From a virus (lineage: Duplodnaviria > Heunggongvirae > Uroviricota > Caudoviricetes): a stretch of 43,934 bases of DNA. The stretch lies in the IMG/VR virus record IMGVR_UViG_2541047848_000002. The stretch is one strand, 5' to 3'. Of the stretch, positions 5,164-17,397 are shown piece by piece; position 1 is the first letter of the stretch, and the number at the start of each line of letters is the position of its first letter. Below the pieces are notes generated by a model. That model did no database searches and was not told where the DNA came from. It saw only the letters and a program-made list of their open reading frames with translations. The position numbers and the translations under genes are program-made.

Positions 5164-5330
5164 CTAGATCTTAAAGTATTTATCTTTTAGAGATGTAGAT
5201 GCAAAATTTTTTGCCTTTGAAAATTTTTTGTCATCAGAAGAGCTTATGAACTCATCTTTTTTGTAGGGAACCGCTAATGCTGCATCACGTCTGCGAGGCA
5301 GCTTACTTACTTCCTCGCACTTTTTCATGA

Positions 5331-6377
5331 TCAGTTATCCTTTAATAACCTATACAGTTTTGTAGGGGTACATCCTGAGGATATTGTTAAGTTCGTAGCA
5401 CGCCTTTTCCGCCCACCATCGTATAAACGAAAACCAGTAGTAGACGAATTTTCTGCGTCAAAAACTATAGACAGTATAACGTCCTCAGACTTTTTTTGCC
5501 ATTCATATGTGCCGTTAGTTGGTTTTGTCATCTGTAGACGCCAGTCAAGAACGCCATCACTTATAGCTGAGAGATCGTTTAGTACGTCTAGTACGGATTG
5601 ATATCTTTCATTTGGATCTACATGAATGCATTTGTTTACTATTGTTATCAATTTTTTATGTATGTGGGAAGGATACTCTTTTAATGGATAGGAGCCATTA
5701 ATTATCGACTCTCTGAGTTGTTCAATCGTTCTAAATGCAGATCTTTCTCTTTCAAAATTATCATATCCAACACACATTCTATATATGGTTAATCCTGCCT
5801 GATATATGTCATATGTGAAATTATAATCATTTGTTGATAAAGAAAAATATTCCGGTGGCACATGAAAATGATATCCAAACTCAGGCGCAGCTCTCGATTC
5901 CTCATTGACTAACTGAGACAATCCAAAGTCAGATAGCATGGCCTCATTTCTGTTTGATATCATGATGTTATTAGGTTTTATATCAAAATGCATAAGACCT
6001 TTTGAGTGTATATGATAAAGCCCACTTAAAAATTGAATAGAATACCGTATTATCTCCCTGCTCGTAAGATTAATCTTTTTTATTAATTGGTTTAGCGAAC
6101 CATTATGATAAAATGGCATGGCTATATAGATATTGCTCTCACATTGAGCAGCATACTGAACTTGCACAATATTTGGATGTGCATGTTTATAGAGAAGCCT
6201 TGCTTCATTAAAGTAGTCGTCGTGGTTAGTGTTTTCTTTTTTTTCTATTTCTTTAATCACCAAGTCATGAGCTAGGTGTCTGTCATGAGCCAGATATACT
6301 TTTGAAAAACAACCCTGTTCTTCTAGATCACGAATCCATTCGAATGCTACATCAGCTCTTTTGTATGGAGTCAGCAT
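5331..6377 (-). CDS. Hanks-type (eukaryotic-like) Ser/Thr protein kinase, lysogen-expressed
   Basis: 348-aa ORF with kinase subdomain motifs: VIKEI (VAIK-like Lys), HFDIKPNN (catalytic loop, HRD variant), SDFGLS (DFG), PPEY (APE-like); about 90 extra C-terminal residues; about 33% GC; strong SD GGAGGT 8 nt upstream; start overlaps the stop of the upstream gene (ATGCTGA). Confidence 0.85.
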   Translation of the reverse strand: MLTPYKRADVAFEWIRDLEEQGCFSKVYLAHDRHLAHDLVIKEIEKKENTNHDDYFNEARLLYKHAHPNIVQVQYAAQCESNIYIAMPFYHNGSLNQLIKKINLTSREIIRYSIQFLSGLYHIHSKGLMHFDIKPNNIMISNRNEAMLSDFGLSQLVNEESRAAPEFGYHFHVPPEYFSLSTNDYNFTYDIYQAGLTIYRMCVGYDNFERERSAFRTIEQLRESIINGSYPLKEYPSHIHKKLITIVNKCIHVDPNERYQSVLDVLNDLSAISDGVLDWRLQMTKPTNGTYEWQKKSEDVILSIVFDAENSSTTGFRLYDGGRKRRATNLTISSGCTPTKLYRLLKDN

Positions 6378-6832
6378 CCCCTTACCTCCGCAGATAGTGC
6401 AGCCAAAACAGCTTCATTTGTTTCAGTTGTAAAACCAGAATTATCGATTCCATTTATATTACGGTGTGACTTCAATATTTCTTTATACTCGATCTCTGTT
6501 AGGTTCAATGATGACTTCATACCAGATTTTCTAATGGTGTAATATCTTCTTACATCACTGCTTGAAAATGCTTCTTGAATAACAGCTTCTATATAAAGGC
6601 GGTCAATGCTAAGATTATCAGAGTTTGATTCAGTAACGCGTATAGCAGCTAATTCAACATTATATAAATTAAGAATGTCGAGGATGTTATTTCGCACATA
6701 CTTTAATTTTTCTGGTGTGTCTAAGGTCGAAGGTATTTTAATAACATCAACACATTTGAGTGCAGACTCATCAGTGCAATATACAACAAAAGATGTAACT
6801 TTGGGCGCCGCCCTAACACCTAGTATTCTCAT
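6371..6832 (-). CDS. Hypothetical protein, translationally coupled partner of the kinase
   Basis: 153-aa ORF immediately downstream of cI in the same orientation (rexA-equivalent position); low GC; stop overlaps kinase start; no domain recognised. Confidence 0.7.
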   Translation of the reverse strand: MRILGVRAAPKVTSFVVYCTDESALKCVDVIKIPSTLDTPEKLKYVRNNILDILNLYNVELAAIRVTESNSDNLSIDRLYIEAVIQEAFSSSDVRRYYTIRKSGMKSSLNLTEIEYKEILKSHRNINGIDNSGFTTETNEAVLAALSAEVRGC

Positions 6833-6912
6833 TTTTTATATCCCATTTTAGAATCAGGCTGCGTTTCTGCAGCCTCTCTCATCACCCAAATGTCTAATCA
6901 GGCTATTATTGA

Positions 6913-7602
6913 TTATCCATGTTTCCTGTATGTTTGCGGCATGCTCCCAATAACTTTCCCGAAGATAAACACCCGGTTCATCTCGTCTTTCTCGATTGGG
7001 TCCCACGGTGAGTAGCTCTTGTTATCAGAGATAACCAGCAGTTTATCCTTCATCATTTGCAGGCGCTTAACATGGGCTGTGTCGTCGTACAGAAACGCAT
7101 AGATACCATCACCGTCGAAAGATTTAACTGTGATATCAACGAACAGCAGATCACCTGGTTCGATCGTTCCTGACATGCTGTCACCACGCACGTTAATGAT
7201 GCGGATATTTTCCGCCTTCCTACCATCGAACATATGACGAGCATCGTCAAACGAGTACTCAACCGAGCGTAGAACTTCTACAAACTCACGGTTGATGACT
7301 CCCGGCCCAGCACTGACTTCTATATCAAGAACGTCAATCTTGAAGTATTTGGAATGGCTGACAGTTGATTGTATTGGTTGCACTGTACTGTCTGACATAT
7401 TTCCAACGCCAGAAGATAACCATTCTGCGCGCACACCCAAAGCGTTCGCGATCTCCACGATTTTAGTTGTTTGATTAGCTTTCCCTGTTTCGATTTTCTG
7501 AATAGCAGCTTGGCTAACCCCGACCAAATCCCCAAGCGCCTTTTGTGTAAGGCCTCGCGCTAATCTGGCTTCTTTAAGTCTTTCTGAGAGTGTTGTTTTC
7601 AT
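6913..7602 (-). CDS. cI: CI-type prophage repressor (HTH plus S24 LexA-like peptidase domain)
   Basis: ORF 6913..7668; probable start MKTTLSERLKEARLARGLTQKALGDLVGVSQAAIQKIE (HTH_XRE); C-terminal domain has Ala-Gly cleavage site (SAGPG), GDSM catalytic Ser and KRL Lys, typical of RecA-stimulated autocleaving repressors; divergent from cro. Confidence 0.9.
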   Translation of the reverse strand: MKTTLSERLKEARLARGLTQKALGDLVGVSQAAIQKIETGKANQTTKIVEIANALGVRAEWLSSGVGNMSDSTVQPIQSTVSHSKYFKIDVLDIEVSAGPGVINREFVEVLRSVEYSFDDARHMFDGRKAENIRIINVRGDSMSGTIEPGDLLFVDITVKSFDGDGIYAFLYDDTAHVKRLQMMKDKLLVISDNKSYSPWDPIEKDEMNRVFIFGKVIGSMPQTYRKHG

Positions 7603-7706
7603 AGTCCAAATGTACAACCAAGGTTTTATTTCATCAAACGAAAATGGTTGTTGACTAAAAACAACCATAGTTTTAATCTTGATTCAAATTAACCACGGAG
7701 GTTGTT
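7603..7706. promoter_or_regulatory. OR operator / PR-PRM region between cI and cro
   Basis: 104-bp divergent intergenic region; candidate PR: -35 TTGACT (7651-7656), 17-nt spacer, -10 TAATCT (7674-7679); inverted repeats ATGGTTGTT-N7-AACAACCAT and AACCAAGGTT as operator candidates; SD GGAGG before the cro ATG. Confidence 0.5.
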
Positions 7707-7937
7707 ATGAACCCAGCTATCAAAACAGCGATCAATATCGTTGGTTCACAAAAGAAACTGGGCGCTGCTTGCGAAGTTTCACAGCAGGCCGTCTATAAGT
7801 GGCTTCACAACAAAGCAAAGGTATCCCCTGAACATGTCGGCAGCATTGTTACGGCTACTGGTGGAGTAGTGAAGGCATACCAGATTCGCCCGGATCTTCC
7901 GAAGTTGTTTCCACACACCGAAAAGAACGCAGCTTAA
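7707..7937 (+). CDS. cro: Cro-like transcriptional regulator
   Basis: 76-aa ORF divergent from cI with an HTH (KKLGAACEVSQQAVYKWL); first gene of the rightward early operon. Confidence 0.8.
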   Translation: MNPAIKTAINIVGSQKKLGAACEVSQQAVYKWLHNKAKVSPEHVGSIVTATGGVVKAYQIRPDLPKLFPHTEKNAA

Positions 7938-8632: not shown

Positions 8633-9562
8633 ATGGCAAACACTGCTGAGATATTCAATTTTCCAGTGCCGGATGCGGCACAAAAGGAGCTGCGCGTGGC
8701 AGATCTCGATGATGGTTATACGCGCATTGCAAATGAGTTGCTGGAAGCTGTGATGCTGGCCGGATTAACACAGCACCAGCTTCTGGTCTTCCTAGCTGTC
8801 ATGCGCAAAACATATGGCTTTAATAAAAAACTGGATTGGGTGAGCAACGAGCAACTGTCCGAATTGACCGGGATATTGCCGCACAAGTGTTCTGCTGCAA
8901 AAAGTGTTCTGGTAAAGCGTGGGATTTTGATTCAGAGCGGGCGGAATATCGGTATTAATAATGTGGTCAGTGAATGGTCAACATTACCCGAATCAGGTAA
9001 GAAAAATAAAGTTTACCTGAAAGAGGTAAATTTACCTGAATCAGGTAAGAAAAGTTTACCCAAATCAGGTAAAGGCGTTTACCCGAATCAGGTAAACACA
9101 AAAGACAAACTAACAAAAGACAATATAAAACCTTTTTCGTCCGAGAATTCTGGCGAATCCTCTGACCAACCAGAAAACGATCTTCCTGTGGTGAAACCAG
9201 ATGCTGCAATTCAGAGCGGCAGCAAGTGGGGGACAGCAGAAGACCTGACCGCCGCAGAGTGGATGTTTGACATGGTGAAGACCATCGCGCCATCAGCCAG
9301 AAAACCGAATTTTGCAGGGTGGGCTAACGATATCCGCCTGATGCGTGAACGTGACGGACGTAACCACCGCGACATGTGTGTGCTGTTCCGCTGGGCATGC
9401 CAGGACAACTTCTGGTCCGGTAACGTGCTAAGTCCGGCCAAACTCCGCGACAAGTGGACCCAACTCGAAATCAACCGTAACAAGCAACAGGCAGGCGTGA
9501 CAGCTAGCAAACCAAAACTCGACCTGACAAACACAGACTGGATTTACGGGGTGGATCTATGA
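8633..9562 (+). CDS. O: Replication initiator O (origin-binding)
   Basis: ORF 8543..9562; probable start at ATG 8633 (MANTAEIFNF...; SD GGGAGG upstream); N-terminal domain resembles lambda O (VADLDDGY..., LAVMRKTYG...) by recall; contains the iteron array internally as in lambda. Confidence 0.9.
   Translation: MANTAEIFNFPVPDAAQKELRVADLDDGYTRIANELLEAVMLAGLTQHQLLVFLAVMRKTYGFNKKLDWVSNEQLSELTGILPHKCSAAKSVLVKRGILIQSGRNIGINNVVSEWSTLPESGKKNKVYLKEVNLPESGKKSLPKSGKGVYPNQVNTKDKLTKDNIKPFSSENSGESSDQPENDLPVVKPDAAIQSGSKWGTAEDLTAAEWMFDMVKTIAPSARKPNFAGWANDIRLMRERDGRNHRDMCVLFRWACQDNFWSGNVLSPAKLRDKWTQLEINRNKQQAGVTASKPKLDLTNTDWIYGVDL
8984..9097. repeat. Origin of replication iterons inside O
   Basis: Five direct copies of about 18 bp (TTTACCyGAAwCAGGTAA) spaced about 22-23 bp, followed by an AT-rich stretch (9098-9135); the classic ori-lambda architecture. 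Confidence 0.7.
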
Positions 9563-10281
9563 AAAACATCGCCGCACAGATGATTAACTTTGACCGTGAG
9601 CAGATGCGTCGGATCGCCAACAACATGCCGGAACAGTACGACGAAAAGCCTCAGGTACAGCAGGTAGCGCAGATCATCAATGGTGTGTTCAGCCAGTTAC
9701 TGGCAACTTTCCCGGCGAGCCTGGCTAACCGTGACCAGAATGAACTGAACGAAATCCGCCGCCAGTGGGTTCTGGCTTTCCGGGAAAACGGGATCACCAC
9801 AATGGAACAGGTTAACGCTGGAATGCGCGTAGCCCGTCGGCAGAATCGACCATTTCTGCCATCACCCGGGCAGTTTGTTGCATGGTGCCGGGAAGAAGCA
9901 TCCGTTATCGCCGGACTGCCAAACGTCAGCGAGCTGGTTGATATGGTTTACGAGTATTGCCGGAAGCGAGGCCTGTATCCGGATGCGGAGTCTTATCCGT
10001 GGAAATCAAACGCGCACTACTGGCTGGTTACCAACCTGTATCAGAACATGCGGGCCAATGCGCTTACTGATGCGGAATTACGCCGTAAGGCCGCAGATGA
10101 GCTTGTCCATATGACTGCGAGAATTAACCGTGGTGAGGCGATCCCTGAACCAGTAAAACAACTTCCTGTTATGGGCGGTAGACCTCTAAATCGTGCACAG
10201 GCTCTGGCGAAGATCGCAGAAATCAAAGCTAAGTTTGGGCTGAAAGGGGGAAAAGCATTATATAAAAAGATTTCGAAATAA
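9559..10281 (+). CDS. P: Replication protein P (DnaB helicase loader)
   Basis: 240-aa ORF (MKNIAAQMINFDREQMRRIANNMPEQYDEKPQVQQVAQIING...) matching lambda P by recall; 4-nt overlap with the O stop. Confidence 0.95.
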   Translation: MKNIAAQMINFDREQMRRIANNMPEQYDEKPQVQQVAQIINGVFSQLLATFPASLANRDQNELNEIRRQWVLAFRENGITTMEQVNAGMRVARRQNRPFLPSPGQFVAWCREEASVIAGLPNVSELVDMVYEYCRKRGLYPDAESYPWKSNAHYWLVTNLYQNMRANALTDAELRRKAADELVHMTARINRGEAIPEPVKQLPVMGGRPLNRAQALAKIAEIKAKFGLKGGKALYKKISK

Positions 10282-10433
10282 TGCATTGATTTTTATGTTT
10301 TTTTCTGTTCAGGTTCTATTGGTTGAAATTAATGCCACTGGGAATAAAAGTTTTAGCAAAGCCCTTCAAAAATGTTGCTGTTGTAAGCTAGAATAATGCG
10401 CCAAATTTACATTGCTGAAACCTGGAATATAGG

Positions 10434-11099
10434 ATGAAAATCATACAGTTACAAATGGTATTTTTTTACGATTCATCAACGACTGTCGATTTCGATGGAA
10501 TGTCGTATTTTATTAGGCAAACTTTTAAAAAGAAGGCAGGTATTGAATTAACAAACAATATGATGTTGGGCGTTTTACCTATGGATACCCCACCAGAGAT
10601 TCCTCGTCTCCAATTGTTTTCTATAGATAATAAATTTAGAGTTCAATGCTCACTGCAGAGATGTGATTTGTTTTTTGAACGTATGGATTCTGAGCAAGAG
10701 GTAGACTTACATTTGTTTCAAGAAGTTTTCGATAGTGTGGTTGATATCCATAAAGAACTCAATAAGGATATTATCAGAATAGGCTTGGTGGCCGTTAAGG
10801 CGGAATTAAACAACAACCCAAACAAAGAGATTGTTAAAAACTATCTTAGTAACAACATGCAGAATGATAGCGAAATAATTGAAGATATTAATTTAATGTA
10901 TAATAAAAAATTCGAGTTTGAGCAGTCCATATTTAATTGTCATTTGTCGATTATGTCAGGATATGATCTTGTCAGAGAACAACCAATGCTAGTGAAACAG
11001 ATCGATGTGAATACAATCGAGAGTTTTATATTTAAAGATAAATATACCGCAGAAAAAACAAAAAAAGCCTTTTTAAGTAAAGTGAATGAAATTCAGTAA
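10434..11099 (+). CDS. Hypothetical protein, first gene of an AT-rich accessory cassette
   Basis: 221-aa ORF in an about 30% GC island directly after P (lambda ren position); no recognisable domain; weak SD. Confidence 0.7.
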   Translation: MKIIQLQMVFFYDSSTTVDFDGMSYFIRQTFKKKAGIELTNNMMLGVLPMDTPPEIPRLQLFSIDNKFRVQCSLQRCDLFFERMDSEQEVDLHLFQEVFDSVVDIHKELNKDIIRIGLVAVKAELNNNPNKEIVKNYLSNNMQNDSEIIEDINLMYNKKFEFEQSIFNCHLSIMSGYDLVREQPMLVKQIDVNTIESFIFKDKYTAEKTKKAFLSKVNEIQ

Positions 11100-11113
11100 T
11101 GTGAGGTGGCTGA

Positions 11114-12073
11114 ATGAATAAGGATGATAATAAAAAGGATATAAAAAGAATTGCAAATAATAATGCTATAGTCAACGATGACATGGCAAAAAGAACTGCG
11201 CATCATTCACTTTATTCTAATTCACAAGTATCGAATAGTACATCTACGTATACAGGAGGGGTACAAAAAATTAGTAATTTGCAGATAGATAATAAAACTG
11301 CAACAGCTTCAAATAAAGAGCGGGAAAGTATATCTATCAAAGACGCGGCACCACAAAACTTAATAAAAACCTCTCTTTTTGTTAATGAAAAAGAAATGTT
11401 GCATGAAGCTATAAAATACAGTTCAAAAGCAACTGTGCCGGTGATGGATAATACTGTCTCTAATGCCATTTTATCTAATTACTTTGTTAATAATAATTCT
11501 GAATCTACAATTTCTTTTAATAAAGAGAATGTAAAAAAATATACAAAAAGTGATATTGATAACATCCTCTGGAAAAATATCAATGATCAACTAACCAATT
11601 TTTCGCAAGAGTTGAATAAGAGCAAAAAGAATATTAATGATACTAAAAGAAAAATAGGTAAGGTAATGTCTTCATTATCTCAGCAAACTGCAAAGATTGA
11701 GCAATTTGATGCAACATTATCAGATGCTGAAAAAGATATACATGAGAAAGTTAAAAGCTTTGAATCGGAAGTAATTACAGCAAGGAACTCAATGCTGGGT
11801 GTCATTGCTTTATTTGCTTCTTTCTTTACTTTCATTTCTATTTCAGTAAACGTATTTTCTCGCGATATGTCTTTAAGCATGTCAATCTCAGTTTTGTTAG
11901 TGATATGGTCGTGCTTAATTAGCTTTATCTTTGTTTTTATGGCAGGGATTAGCAAGGGAGGAGCTTTTTTTACAAGCTCATCATTTATTAAGCATGCCAT
12001 TTTTATGGTTGTGCTTTTTATTTCATCTTTCGCACTCCCTAAAGTTATTTTTAATATCTTTGCAATTAGCTGA
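11114..12073 (+). CDS. Hypothetical membrane protein with N-terminal Asn/Ser-rich coiled-coil region and C-terminal multi-helix hydrophobic domain
   Basis: 319-aa ORF 14 nt after the previous gene with strong SD GAGGTGG; the C-terminal about 100 aa contain three hydrophobic helix-like segments (LGVIALFASFFTFISISVNVF; ISVLLVIWSCLISFIFVFMAGI; AIFMVVLFISSFALPKVIF); about 30% GC. Confidence 0.75.
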   Translation: MNKDDNKKDIKRIANNNAIVNDDMAKRTAHHSLYSNSQVSNSTSTYTGGVQKISNLQIDNKTATASNKERESISIKDAAPQNLIKTSLFVNEKEMLHEAIKYSSKATVPVMDNTVSNAILSNYFVNNNSESTISFNKENVKKYTKSDIDNILWKNINDQLTNFSQELNKSKKNINDTKRKIGKVMSSLSQQTAKIEQFDATLSDAEKDIHEKVKSFESEVITARNSMLGVIALFASFFTFISISVNVFSRDMSLSMSISVLLVIWSCLISFIFVFMAGISKGGAFFTSSSFIKHAIFMVVLFISSFALPKVIFNIFAIS

Positions 12074-12157
12074 CTATCAGATGTTATCTTCAGTTGTTTA
12101 GGGTTGATTTAAAAGCGAATCTTAATATTTTCAAATTTTGAATTTAGAAATAAAAAA

Positions 12158-12300
12158 GCCATAATATTGTCATCGGAGCCTAAAAAACTCCGGTGACTTC
12201 TGCGCTAAACGGGGACGTTTATGCGCACACACAATCCAAACTCTCATCTCCATTCACAGATGCAGAAATGCACCTACGATTTTTTACATTCGGTGTTTTA
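12158..12300. repeat. Direct repeat copy 1 (about 140 bp; second copy at 14090-14235)
   Basis: Copies align by eye at roughly 88% identity with one indel (core AACTCCGGTGACTTCTGCGCTAAACGGGGACGTTTATGCGCAC...CCATTCACAGATGCAGAAATGCACCT). Confidence 0.7.
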
Positions 12301-12704
12301 CTTCGACAGCCAGAATTGGGAGTCTCTATTCGTCTGGCGGCTAAAGGTGATATGGAAATCGTTATGTTTTGGCCTGAGGTAGTTGTAACTGTTGTAGCAA
12401 CTATGGCTGTGATCATCATGGTGTCCATTTACTGGGGTTGACGACATGATTTATCCGGCGCTATATTCTGTGCGTTGCCGCAAAATCGGCACACGGGATT
12501 GGCGTCCCGGGATACTACTCAACGCATACCGCGTTAAGCGGTTTTTTTGTGCGCTAAGCACGGCTATGCCCAAATTATGGTGGGCTGTGTGAGGGCTTCT
12601 TCGGAAGCGCCGGGTTTGAGTAGCCGGTTACGCCAACCTTACACAGTTCACCACCAGTCGATTGGCGTCGTTGGTGGTGATGGTTAACCTGATGAGGTGA
12701 TACT

Positions 12705-13313
12705 ATGACTACTCAATTAGCATTCCACAAAACGACGTTTACCCCGATTTGCCACAATAACAGAATTTGGCTTACTGCCACTGAAGTTGGTTTAGCACTG
12801 GAATATGCGGACGATAAAGCAGTTCAGCGCATTTACTCTCGGCACTCAGATGAATTCACAGATATGATGACAAGGGTGGTCAAAGTGACCACCCCTCGTG
12901 GAATGCAGGAGTCTCGAGTATTTAGCCTTCGCGGAGCCCATTTGATCGCCATGTTTGCTCGTACTCCTGTGGCCAAAGAATTCCGCCGCTGGGTTCTGGA
13001 TATTCTCGATCGAGAAGTTCAACAATCCCCAATCACAAAACAATTCACTGATAACGAACTTTGCACACTCGCCTGGTTATGGCGAGCAAGTGATACGATG
13101 TTAACCGCCTGCCAGAACGTTACGCCCCTTCTTCAGGTCGCAGAGCATCGCGAAGCAGGTAGATTCACTTCAATCGAACAAGAATATCCTCGGATACTCA
13201 ACAGGGCGCGAGAAATCCTTGCCAGAGAAACGGCGCATGTAAAATTCCAACCGTGGCAGGATGATAAGTGGAGTCGTGTGTTACCATATTTCCGTCAGAA
13301 TCTGTTGCAATAA
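12705..13313 (+). CDS. Bro-N domain protein (putative antirepressor-like regulator)
   Basis: 202-aa ORF with SD GAGGTGA; N-terminal region (FTPICHNNRIWLTATEVGLALEYADDKAVQRIY) resembles the Bro-N/antirepressor N-terminal domain. Confidence 0.7.
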   Translation: MTTQLAFHKTTFTPICHNNRIWLTATEVGLALEYADDKAVQRIYSRHSDEFTDMMTRVVKVTTPRGMQESRVFSLRGAHLIAMFARTPVAKEFRRWVLDILDREVQQSPITKQFTDNELCTLAWLWRASDTMLTACQNVTPLLQVAEHREAGRFTSIEQEYPRILNRAREILARETAHVKFQPWQDDKWSRVLPYFRQNLLQ

Positions 13314-13547: not shown

Positions 13548-14057
13548 ATGATGTGGAACTTTGACAGTGCCGACTTAAGTGCAATAGCAGCAGGCATTTC
13601 TGCGTTTGGCACATTAGCCGCAGCGGGGTCGGCGCTTGCAAGTTGGTACACGTCAAAAAAAGCGCTGCAGCTACAAAATAGAGTTTACCTTTATGAGTCT
13701 TTAAAGGCTTGCGCTGAGAGAGCCAATTCATCAGCTAAAGATAAGCGCGGATCTGAATGGAGCGTTAATGATGCAGCGGATATCATCAGGTGCCTAGTAC
13801 GGGCGATGGAGATCATCAAGCAGGATAGCCAGCAGAAAGAAGGTAATCAGGCATTAATGTTGAAACAGTACTTTGTTAATCTGCTAATAATGGAACTGTA
13901 CGAGGAAGTTCATAACGGTGATGCGGCTGATTCTGTTTTTAAAAGGACGGAACCTACACAAGTACTTGATAACTTATGGGGCAAATGGCAGGAGGCTATA
14001 GCTTTTTTTGATATTTGGAATTACCCAGTTGCGACTGAGGAAGACTTGGCAGACTAA
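13548..14057 (+). CDS. Hypothetical protein with N-terminal hydrophobic (Ala/Gly-rich) segment
   Basis: 169-aa ORF (MMWNFDSADLSAIAAGISAFGTLAAAGSALASWY...) preceded by an AT-rich region; no domain recognised. Confidence 0.6.
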   Translation: MMWNFDSADLSAIAAGISAFGTLAAAGSALASWYTSKKALQLQNRVYLYESLKACAERANSSAKDKRGSEWSVNDAADIIRCLVRAMEIIKQDSQQKEGNQALMLKQYFVNLLIMELYEEVHNGDAADSVFKRTEPTQVLDNLWGKWQEAIAFFDIWNYPVATEEDLAD

Positions 14058-14089
14058 TTTTCAGCACATTTGATTTCCAATAATCAACC

Positions 14090-14235
14090 AGCCATAATCA
14101 TGCCATTGGAGCCTGAACAACTCCGGTGACTTCTGCGCTAAACGGGGACGTTTATGCGCACATACAATCCAACCTATCTTCTCCATTCACAGATGCAGAA
14201 ATGCACCTGCGATTTTTTGCATCCAGCGTTTGGCC
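14090..14235. repeat. Direct repeat copy 2 (partner of 12158-12300), immediately upstream of the NinB/YbcN-like gene
   Basis: See copy 1; this copy runs into the SD (GGAGG) and GTG start of the ORF at 14252. Confidence 0.7.
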
Positions 14236-16314: not shown

Positions 16315-17397
16315 TTAGAACTGGTAAACCAGACCTACAGCAACGATGTCATCAGTATCAATACCAGCTGTTTTGGTAAACTTACTATCGTCAATTAAGT
16401 TGATTTTGTAATCAACAAAAGTGGACATGTTTTTATTAAAGTAGTAAGTAGCACCGACATCGACATACTTGACTAAGTCTCGGTCACCATGAACACCAAG
16501 GTCTTTACCTTTTGACTGAAGGTAAGCAACAGATGGGCGCAGACCGAAGTCAAACTGATATTGTGCTACTGCTTCAAAGTTTTGTGCTTTGTTTGCAATA
16601 TGGTTATTACCAAAAACGGTCATATTCTGAGTTTCAGAATATGTGGTAGCCAGATAGATATTGTTCGCATCATATTTCAGGCCTGCAGCCCATACTTCCG
16701 CATTTTTGCCGGAGGCATTGAATTTGCTCTTACCATAGGCGACCTGACCGTCAGTGCGATCTGATTTAGCATAGGTTGCACCCACGCCGAATCCTTCATA
16801 CTCATAAGTAGTGGAGAAACCGAAACCATCACCATTGGCTTCAGTTACGTCAGTGCGGTCATTTTTACCCTGATACTGAGCAGCAAAGTTCAGGCCATCG
16901 ACCAGACCAAAGAAGTCGTTGTTACGATAAGTTGCAACACCAGTAGTGCGACCAGTCATGAACACATCTGTTTGGGTCCAGGTATCACCACCGAATTCTG
17001 GCAGGACGTCAGTCCACGCACCGATGTCGTATGCTACACCGTAGTTACGGCCGTAATCGATTGAGCCGTAATCACCAAATTTCAGGCCTGCAAATGCAAG
17101 ACGGGTTTTGTCTTTGGAAGAACCTTGAGATTCAGCGCGGTTGCCTTTGAATTCATATTCCCACTGACCGAAACCAGTCAGTTGATCGTTGATTTGGGTT
17201 TCACCTTTGAAGCCAAGACGGGCATAAGTAGTATCACCATCATCTGCATCATTAGAGGAGAAGTAGTGCTTAGCATTAACTTTCCCGTACAGATCCAGCT
17301 TGTTACTGTCTTTATTATAAATTTCAGCTGCCTGAGCAGACATCGCCATCAGTACTGATGCAGCTACAGCAGAAATTGCCACTGTTAATTTTTTCAT
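16315..17397 (-). CDS. nmpC: Outer-membrane general porin (NmpC/OmpD/Lc family)
   Basis: 360-aa ORF with signal peptide ([29 protein letters not shown]), typical porin beta-strand pattern and C-terminal ...GLVYQF; sits between Q and the holin on the opposite strand, as nmpC does in DLP12. Confidence 0.93.

Follow-up and report, generated by a model that had tools for sequence, protein, structure and literature searches.

A two-gene AT-rich cassette behind gene P of a lambdoid Escherichia coli prophage, a candidate phage-exclusion module built from unnamed protein families

Why does a lambdoid prophage carry, at the place where lambda has ren, a sharply AT-rich island with two genes of its own? 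This question was raised by a first-pass annotation of the IMG/VR record IMGVR_UViG_2541047848_000002, a stretch of 43,934 nucleotides (nt), hereafter the window, which corresponds to a lambdoid Escherichia coli prophage with near-identical copies at the lambda attachment site beside ybhC. The island lies between the replication gene P and the nin region, and encodes a soluble protein (A) followed by a membrane protein (B). The A+B pair is read here as self-contained, swappable cargo that would act in a Rex-like way, by abortive infection or exclusion, with A as the putative sensor or regulator and B as the putative membrane effector, and a probability of about 0.45 is assigned to this reading. 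These roles were inferred from the constancy of the first gene in related operons, the block-wise change of its partners, the carriage by prophages and genomic islands, and the location in a slot that also holds a known defence gene. A constant first gene accompanied by transmembrane (TM) or RNase-type partners would be typical of abortive-infection systems, and it is from the architecture, the location and the partner swapping that abortive infection is proposed for A+B.

The island and the elements around its two genes are as follows, positions being those of the window.

10248-12200, no strand: AT-rich cargo island, defined by the drop in guanine-plus-cytosine (GC) content and by the homology to a sister prophage (L012), which stops at 10247 and restarts at 12201; matches to phages also end at 10247 and begin again at 12135-12158.
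9559-10281, + strand: replication gene P, from the open reading frame (ORF) list and named 'replication protein P' in RefSeq.
10365-10394, + strand: sigma-70-like sequence TTCAAA-18-TAGAAT, matching 9/12 consensus positions, 39 nt upstream of gene A.
10434-11099, + strand: gene A, coding for a soluble protein of 221 amino acids (aa), from the ORF list.
11103-11108, + strand: ribosome-binding site of gene B, GAGGTG, 5 nt before the ATG of B and 3 nt past the stop codon of A.
12149-12298, + strand: boundary element of 150 nt, repeated directly at 14082-14231 (88%) and holding the right junction of the island.

The GC content falls to 0.26-0.35 over approximately 10300-12250, whereas P and the downstream genes range from 0.45 to 0.57. 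The similarity to lambdoid phages and prophages breaks off at 10247, within the last ~12 codons of P, and picks up again at 12135-12201, which indicates that the island replaced ren and supplied a new C-terminus to P. In fact, the P codons from 10248 on are island-derived, and the protein now ends in ...GGKALYKKISK. Genes A and B are on the same strand and are separated by a gap of 14 nt. Therefore, the GC profile and the homology break bore out the earlier claim of an AT-rich island in the place of ren, and the ORF list that of two closely spaced same-strand genes of 221 and 319 aa.

The slot itself provided the strongest link with phage defence. Sister prophages that were 97-99% identical to the window in both flanks presented other cargo between the same junctions (10247 and 12201 of the window), composed of ren and a gene for a 499-aa minus-strand protein. 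This protein matched the PADLOC model PD-Lambda-1 with an E-value of 6e-198. PD-lambda-1 was identified through functional selection (PMC9519451) and corresponds to SNIPE, a validated anti-lambda defence in which a membrane-bound nuclease cuts phage DNA during its injection (PMC13190303). Since sister prophages carry SNIPE between the same junctions, the slot is a cargo-exchange site that demonstrably holds anti-phage defence, and the initial idea of a defence slot gained support. Moreover, the site is precisely bounded, from the end of P to the 150-nt nin repeat, and its content is swappable, so that other unknown cargo could be mined there.

Gene B occupies 11114-12073 on the + strand and codes for a protein of 319 aa, which was divided into three regions.

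11114-11533, + strand: B residues 1-140, rich in Asn, Ser and Lys and predicted to be disordered (AlphaFold predicted local distance difference test score, pLDDT, below 50).
11546-11785, + strand: B residues 145-224, the cytoplasmic, coiled-coil-like stretch of a long predicted helix (residues 145-251, pLDDT 71-93).
11786-12073, + strand: B residues 225-319 and the stop codon, three Ser/Phe-rich TM helices by hydropathy and AlphaFold.

The hydrophobic stretches of B spanned residues 225-249 and 251-319, and in the AlphaFold model TM1 was formed by the end of the helix 145-251, TM2 by residues 254-280 and TM3 by residues 289-315. The three-helix hydrophobic C-terminal domain that had been proposed for B was thus found by both approaches. 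The Asn/Ser-rich coiled-coil N-terminal part proposed with it held for its composition; residues 1-140 were predicted to be disordered, and the coiled-coil-like helix was placed at residues 145-225. The absence of a signal peptide in the 225-residue N-terminal part, together with K281, K293 and H294 in the TM2-TM3 loop, argued for an N-in, C-out topology. In this model, B would be almost wholly cytoplasmic outside the membrane, with predicted periplasmic loops of ~3 residues.

These regions differed in conservation, as measured by the mean pairwise identity among 23 homologues and by the ratio of nonsynonymous to synonymous substitution rates (dN/dS). The N-terminal region was hypervariable (identity 0.18, dN/dS 0.19-0.49), with lengths of 96-198 aa in homologues, and the helix region was intermediate (identity 0.41, dN/dS 0.067). 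The TM domain was nearly invariant between genera (identity 0.77, dN/dS 0.012), and almost all of the 48 invariant columns of the B alignment lay within it. This conservation exceeds the needs of a membrane anchor and makes it probable that the TM bundle itself carries the function of B. With a conserved three-helix domain beside a hypervariable disordered N-terminus, B would also lend itself well to studying how a small membrane effector can be silenced and then triggered.

Protein A had no hydrophobic segment (maximum 19-residue Kyte-Doolittle value of 0.53), and its predicted fold was a tandem beta-alpha-beta-beta-beta-alpha repeat forming a single antiparallel sheet. The alignment of its superfamily, described below, revealed P57, D191 and N193 as invariant and F11, P49, P53, R76, D78, R115 and N168 as nearly so. 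The i/i+2 spacing of R76/D78 and of D191/N193 along strands would turn these residues to one side of the sheet, and the conserved R76/D78, R115, N168 and D191/N193 suggest a ligand- or nucleotide-binding face. The loop motif LPxDxPPEIPRL corresponds to residues 48-59 of A, and this loop, DAPxEIPR in the superfamily, may be a docking site.

Neither protein could be assigned to a named family, as had been the impression from the sequence. No match to A or B was obtained in Pfam, NCBIfam release 20 (June 2026) or PADLOC-DB 2.0.0 at a cut-off of E≤1; systems described after 2023 were covered only indirectly, by the NCBIfam release of June 2026 and by the 'hypothetical protein' naming in RefSeq. 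Both proteins were named 'hypothetical protein' in RefSeq and in every other source, and in PHROGs they fell in the unknown-function families phrog_24110 and phrog_25335. Profile searches of PDB sequences returned no match for A, those for B were limited to generic coiled coils, and the structure search in BFVD returned a single unnamed viral protein (TM-score 0.56-0.61). Similarly, homology to phage structural or replication proteins, which would have spoken for another role, was found in neither the library nor the PDB searches. The accessions of A and B were not mentioned in the literature searched, and the queries for TIGR04255, the slot description and PDC-M32 likewise yielded nothing on A or B. 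If the pair excludes phages, it would add a defence system made of two protein families that are missing from every curated library.

The co-occurrence of A and B as a unit, an expectation of the defence hypothesis, was confirmed by strict adjacency across six enterobacterial genera and two metagenomic lineages. Word-indexed searches retrieved 26 clusters of B, and A, with the profile search included, gave 13 close and three distant clusters. In all loci with upstream DNA, A was placed 9-19 nt upstream of B, and paired loci were found in Escherichia, a Klebsiella-like lineage, Leclercia, Citrobacter, Kosakonia, Erwinia and Scandinavium. Among 14 IMG/VR contigs, A preceded B in 12, and in the remaining two B abutted the contig end. 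In the two metagenomic lineages, an A protein only ~21% identical to that of the window again had a B homologue downstream (hhalign probability of 98.6%, E 5e-16, 41% identity over TM1-TM2). For one moderately diverged locus pair, dN/dS was 0.127 for A and 0.115 for B. These values and the distant pairing indicate that A and B are real genes under purifying selection and that their association is old.

Concerning its distribution, the pair was present in 21 of the 5,426 complete E. coli genomes (0.4%), every time in the post-P prophage slot, and its carriers included clinical and animal isolates. In other genera it was also found after P in lambdoid prophages whose P proteins were only 55-75% identical, while the Erwinia pair adjoined an integrase with Dam and cytosine methylases, and further copies were in remnants beside icd and chromosomal genes. 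None of 72,556 plasmid records matched B in a tblastn search. Many A and B cluster members in the databases are 'partial' at contig ends, indicating that short-read assemblies often break in the island and that the frequency in draft genomes is probably underestimated.

The relatives of A extended far beyond this pair. With the A profile, a search of 1.84 billion representative proteins recovered at least 855 clusters, defined at 50% identity, under a cut-off of E≤1e-3, and 253 of them passed E≤1e-10. Nearly all consisted of single-domain proteins of 220-260 aa, and the loop motif, in the form LP(I/L)PxDAPxEIPR(I/L), was present in 79 of the 148 retrieved superfamily proteins. None of 62 members matched a Pfam or PADLOC model, PDC-M32 included, and two of them presented sub-threshold matches to TIGR04255 (E 1.7e-3). 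The genomic contexts of A-like genes were obtained by exact-protein look-ups, a GTDB scan and a DNA-pattern scan of metagenomes, in which 40 of 120 stretches were confirmed as A-like; a narrower profile scan of IMG/VR revealed one locus only. The A-like genes lead operons of two to three genes, and the clustering of their partners defined at least seven operon types, including the following.

10-11 loci: A-like gene with partners of 167-252 aa and 142-218 aa.
7-11 loci: A-like gene with partners of ~260 aa and ~120 aa.
8-9 loci, gut Lachnospiraceae: A-like gene with partners of ~115 aa and ~192 aa.
5 loci: A-like gene with a partner of 139-176 aa and a PIN nuclease.
3 lineages: A-like gene with a B-like gene.
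2-3 loci each: two rarer types, one of them with a sub-threshold HEPN match.

The PIN-type operons were found directly after integrases and near type I restriction-modification (R-M), HepT/MNT and Fic genes. Besides, of 47 partner proteins, five matched PDC-M32A, a PADLOC candidate, with a best E of 2.2e-9, and one matched PDC-M32B (E 8e-4). This implies that the A superfamily coincides, in one branch or more, with a system to which association with defence islands had already drawn attention. Conserved gene sets that move as a unit and lie in hotspots or islands are a mark of defence systems, and this is what was observed here, in the strict pairing of A and B, in the slot shared with PD-lambda-1 and in relatives near integrases, type I R-M, HepT/MNT and Fic genes.

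A broader reading, doubtful at present, is that A is the founding member of a large superfamily, so far uncurated, whose genes head a modular immune system with interchangeable effector sets, namely a three-TM pore-former, PIN nucleases and unknown pairs, one of them being PDC-M32. This system would be spread over Proteobacteria, Firmicutes, Desulfobacterota and Patescibacteria, and A would be a new infection sensor or a small-molecule-handling enzyme. In any case, solving what A senses or makes in the E. coli/lambda system would open a way into seven or more related operon types at once, the candidate PDC-M32 among them.

As a separate observation, the PIN-type operon, in which the A-like gene precedes a gene for a protein of 151-176 aa that falls in no known family, and then the PIN gene, occupied 6001-7729 in two loci (L009 and L010), 4404-6145 in L015 and 4753-6643 in L017. 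It always adjoined an integrase or a serine recombinase, sometimes had a small helix-turn-helix gene in front, and appears to be an unnamed mobile module of its own. The middle protein was also considered as a relative of the cytoplasmic part of B, and this was rejected (hhalign probability of 0.1%).

For the pair of the window, the following mechanism could be envisaged. A would be the constant sensor or regulator, and B would be silent before infection, restrained either by A or by the helix and the disordered region of its own cytoplasmic part. Once an infection was sensed, A would release or activate B, which might oligomerize through its long helix, and the Ser-rich, near-invariant TM bundle would then permeabilize or depolarize the inner membrane, aborting the infection. 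In other branches of the superfamily, PIN nucleases would take the role of B.

Among the named systems, A+B is likened most to RexAB, and the idea of a sensor and membrane-effector exclusion module drawn from unrelated, unnamed protein families has somewhat less than an even chance of being right. Both are two-gene modules of lambdoid prophages that join a soluble partner to a small polytopic inner-membrane protein, a likeness of architecture only, and both would follow the proposed logic in which the membrane potential collapses once a soluble sensor has switched on the membrane effector. Moreover, the A+B island displaces ren, a lambda gene linked to escape from Rex. However, A and B have no sequence or profile similarity to RexA or RexB in Pfam, PADLOC, NCBIfam or PHROGs. 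RexB spans the membrane with four helices and lacks a cytoplasmic domain; in B, three TM helices follow a cytoplasmic part of 225 residues, disordered and then helical. The position also differs, since rexAB neighbours cI and shares its transcript, while the A+B pair was found after P, on the strand of pR and ~2.8 kb away from the repressor gene, which occupies 6913-7668 on the minus strand.

PD-lambda-1/SNIPE shares with A+B the same junction-to-junction slot and a membrane anchor with a cytoplasmic bulk. Nevertheless, one gene on the opposite strand encodes it, as a protein of 499 aa with an N-terminal TM helix, DUF4041 and a GIY-YIG nuclease (Vassallo 2022; Saxton 2026), whereas A and B have no nuclease domain and match no SNIPE model in PADLOC or Pfam. 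The likeness to the predicted PADLOC candidate PDC-M32 concerns only the partners in distant A-like operons, and A and B of the window match no PDC-M32 model at E≤1. The combination of a constant first gene with alternative effectors, multi-TM in one branch and PIN nuclease in another, is also reminiscent of CBASS, Pycsar and retrons, but A+B has no known signalling enzyme; neither A nor B matched Kiwa, Zorya, the TM effectors of CBASS, Pycsar and retrons or other PADLOC 2.0 components. Finally, the uncharacterized and sporadic TIGR04255 family is similar in size to the A superfamily, although the superfamily matches were far under its curated cut-off and A of the window gave none; the literature searched makes no mention of this family.

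The slot shared with SNIPE, together with the topology of B, also bears on a different kind of exclusion, which we consider improbable. In this alternative, B would sit in the inner membrane and block the entry of incoming phage DNA, as do SieA, Imm and HK97 gp15, or would occupy host entry factors like SNIPE, with A assisting or regulating it and the cell surviving. The module is prophage-borne and shares its slot with a protein acting at the injection site (PMC13190303), and the near-invariance of the TM domain could reflect contact with a conserved host membrane protein. However, known superinfection exclusion proteins are encoded by single small genes, and B outside the membrane is predicted to be nearly all cytoplasmic, with its periplasmic loops of ~3 residues. 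Other branches of the A superfamily replace B by cytoplasmic PIN nucleases, which is a better fit to a killing or RNase effector than to a barrier at the membrane.

The same PIN-type operons could be taken as a sign of addiction, PIN being a classic toxin fold. A selfish toxin-antitoxin (TA) pair, with B as the membrane toxin and A as the antidote, would stabilize the carrier prophage or island and have no anti-phage role. The tight two-gene operon with the putative antidote first is consistent with this explanation, as is the survival of the pair in remnants of prophages that border icd and chromosomal genes. On the other hand, A, with its 221 aa, its conserved sheet face and a superfamily-wide motif, is unlike the small labile antitoxins, and the neighbour in the hotspot is a direct-defence gene and not a TA module. 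Many TA-like modules prove to be defence systems, so the two explanations overlap in part; as an alternative to the exclusion module, addiction is unlikely.

Several observations weigh against the exclusion module. The pair is rare among complete E. coli genomes (21/5,426), and no match to A or B was found by tblastn in 50,697 phage records. It is absent from the supplements of the DefensePredictor paper, and the PADLOC 2.0 models match neither protein. In the related operons, most partners have no Pfam or NCBIfam domain and no recognizable toxic domain. In one further E. coli genome, NZ_OZ546938 (L011, 4235-5191), an IS1 element truncated A after ~83 codons and the remainder of A and all of B were lost, which amounts to a natural knockout in an otherwise similar, defective prophage.

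The expression of the cassette adds to these doubts. The promoter attributed to the island is present as a sequence, TTCAAA-N18-TAGAAT, and was relocated from around 10390-10420 to 10365-10394, but 17 such matches occurred in the AT-rich stretch against 10.2 ± 3.2 in shuffled sequences, a near-chance count that makes it no evidence for a promoter. DNA with 30% GC is typically silenced by H-NS in E. coli. The cassette is on the strand of the pR early operon, and no terminator-like site was found between P and A, the first one being at 12528, downstream of the pair. Thus, A and B would be made during the lytic growth of the prophage itself, which fits a lytic role as well as a moron. The candidate defence or exclusion module put forward by the first-pass annotation was therefore upheld in its soluble and membrane pair in a moron slot, now known to be shared with a validated defence, and lost the support of a promoter of its own.

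A lytic-cycle accessory expressed from pR with O and P, acting in the membrane tethering of replication, in host takeover or in a holin-like timing or inhibition of lysis, would account for this strand and for the place directly downstream of P, which is retained in divergent lambdoid prophages, and the three-TM layout of B recalls class I holins. However, these holins are small three-TM proteins, N-out and C-in, whose genes precede that of the endolysin in the lysis cassette, whereas B has its 225-residue cytoplasmic N-terminal part, lies 6 kb upstream of the holin, lysozyme and spanin genes that the prophage possesses as its own cassette, and matches no holin family. Sister prophages have ren and SNIPE instead of the pair, copies also occur outside replication modules, by integrases and in remnants, and the pair is missing from all 50,697 sequenced phage genomes. 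Considering also that A-like relatives reside in non-phage islands with PIN genes, a lytic-cycle role is quite improbable.

Least probable of all, and very unlikely, is a lysogenic-conversion or host-fitness factor unrelated to phages (envelope stress, colonization or toxin export), to which the AT-rich moron-like nature of the cargo, the clinical and animal carriers and the lack of a recognizable domain would be congenial, but which is at odds with two nearly all cytoplasm-facing proteins without signal peptide or surface-exposed domain, with superfamily neighbours such as integrases, R-M, HepT/MNT, Fic and PIN genes, and with carriage by only 0.4% of complete E. coli genomes.

With regard to the boundaries of the exclusion-module candidate, the 150-nt element was recurrent in the nin regions of many lambdoid phages, including phage 82, often at two places per record, and it is plausible that it serves as a substrate for cargo exchange, that is, as a recombination linker for module swapping. 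In phage 82, it corresponds to the annotated orf33, with a possible regulator-binding site and a promoter. In the window, its copies (12149-12298 and 14082-14231) flank the module immediately to the right of the island, composed of isrK/C4 RNAs, an antirepressor-like gene and a 169-aa protein gene.

Rfam revealed no RNA element within the island, its isrK/C4 matches belonging to this next module: isrK at 12476-12548 (58.7 bits) and the C4 antisense RNA at 12573-12658 (74.8 bits), with the c4 a1/b1 target at 12461-12513 scoring 39.6 bits, slightly under the gathering score of 46.7. These RNAs lie directly 5′ of the ORF 12705-13313, which encodes an antirepressor-like protein with a P22AR C-terminal domain, and the arrangement resembles the RNA-controlled antirepressor modules of P1/P7 immI or Salmonella IsrK-AnrP. 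The site after the antirepressor gene was variable, being occupied in the window by the gene of the 169-aa hypothetical protein (13548-14057) and in E. coli strain 9000 (L033, NZ_CP018252, 3122-3918) by genes for a HEPN-domain protein and a hypothetical protein.

Other cargo was observed elsewhere in the prophage. The slot downstream of the repressor, in the position of rexAB (5171-6898), contained two minus-strand ORFs, 5331-6377 (348 aa) and 6371-6832 (153 aa), and the 348-aa product showed, by eye, Ser/Thr-kinase motifs (VIKEIEKK, HFDIKPNN and SDFGLS). Near-identical prophages fill this slot with a HipA-family kinase and DUF3037, or with DUF6932 and a hypothetical protein, making it a second cargo hotspot with kinase-type defence-like candidates. 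Additionally, the Q antiterminator and the lysis genes are separated by a gene for an OmpC-type porin of 360 aa (16315-17397, minus strand), named porin OmpC in matching records. As a lysogenic-conversion gene, it could change the availability of receptors.

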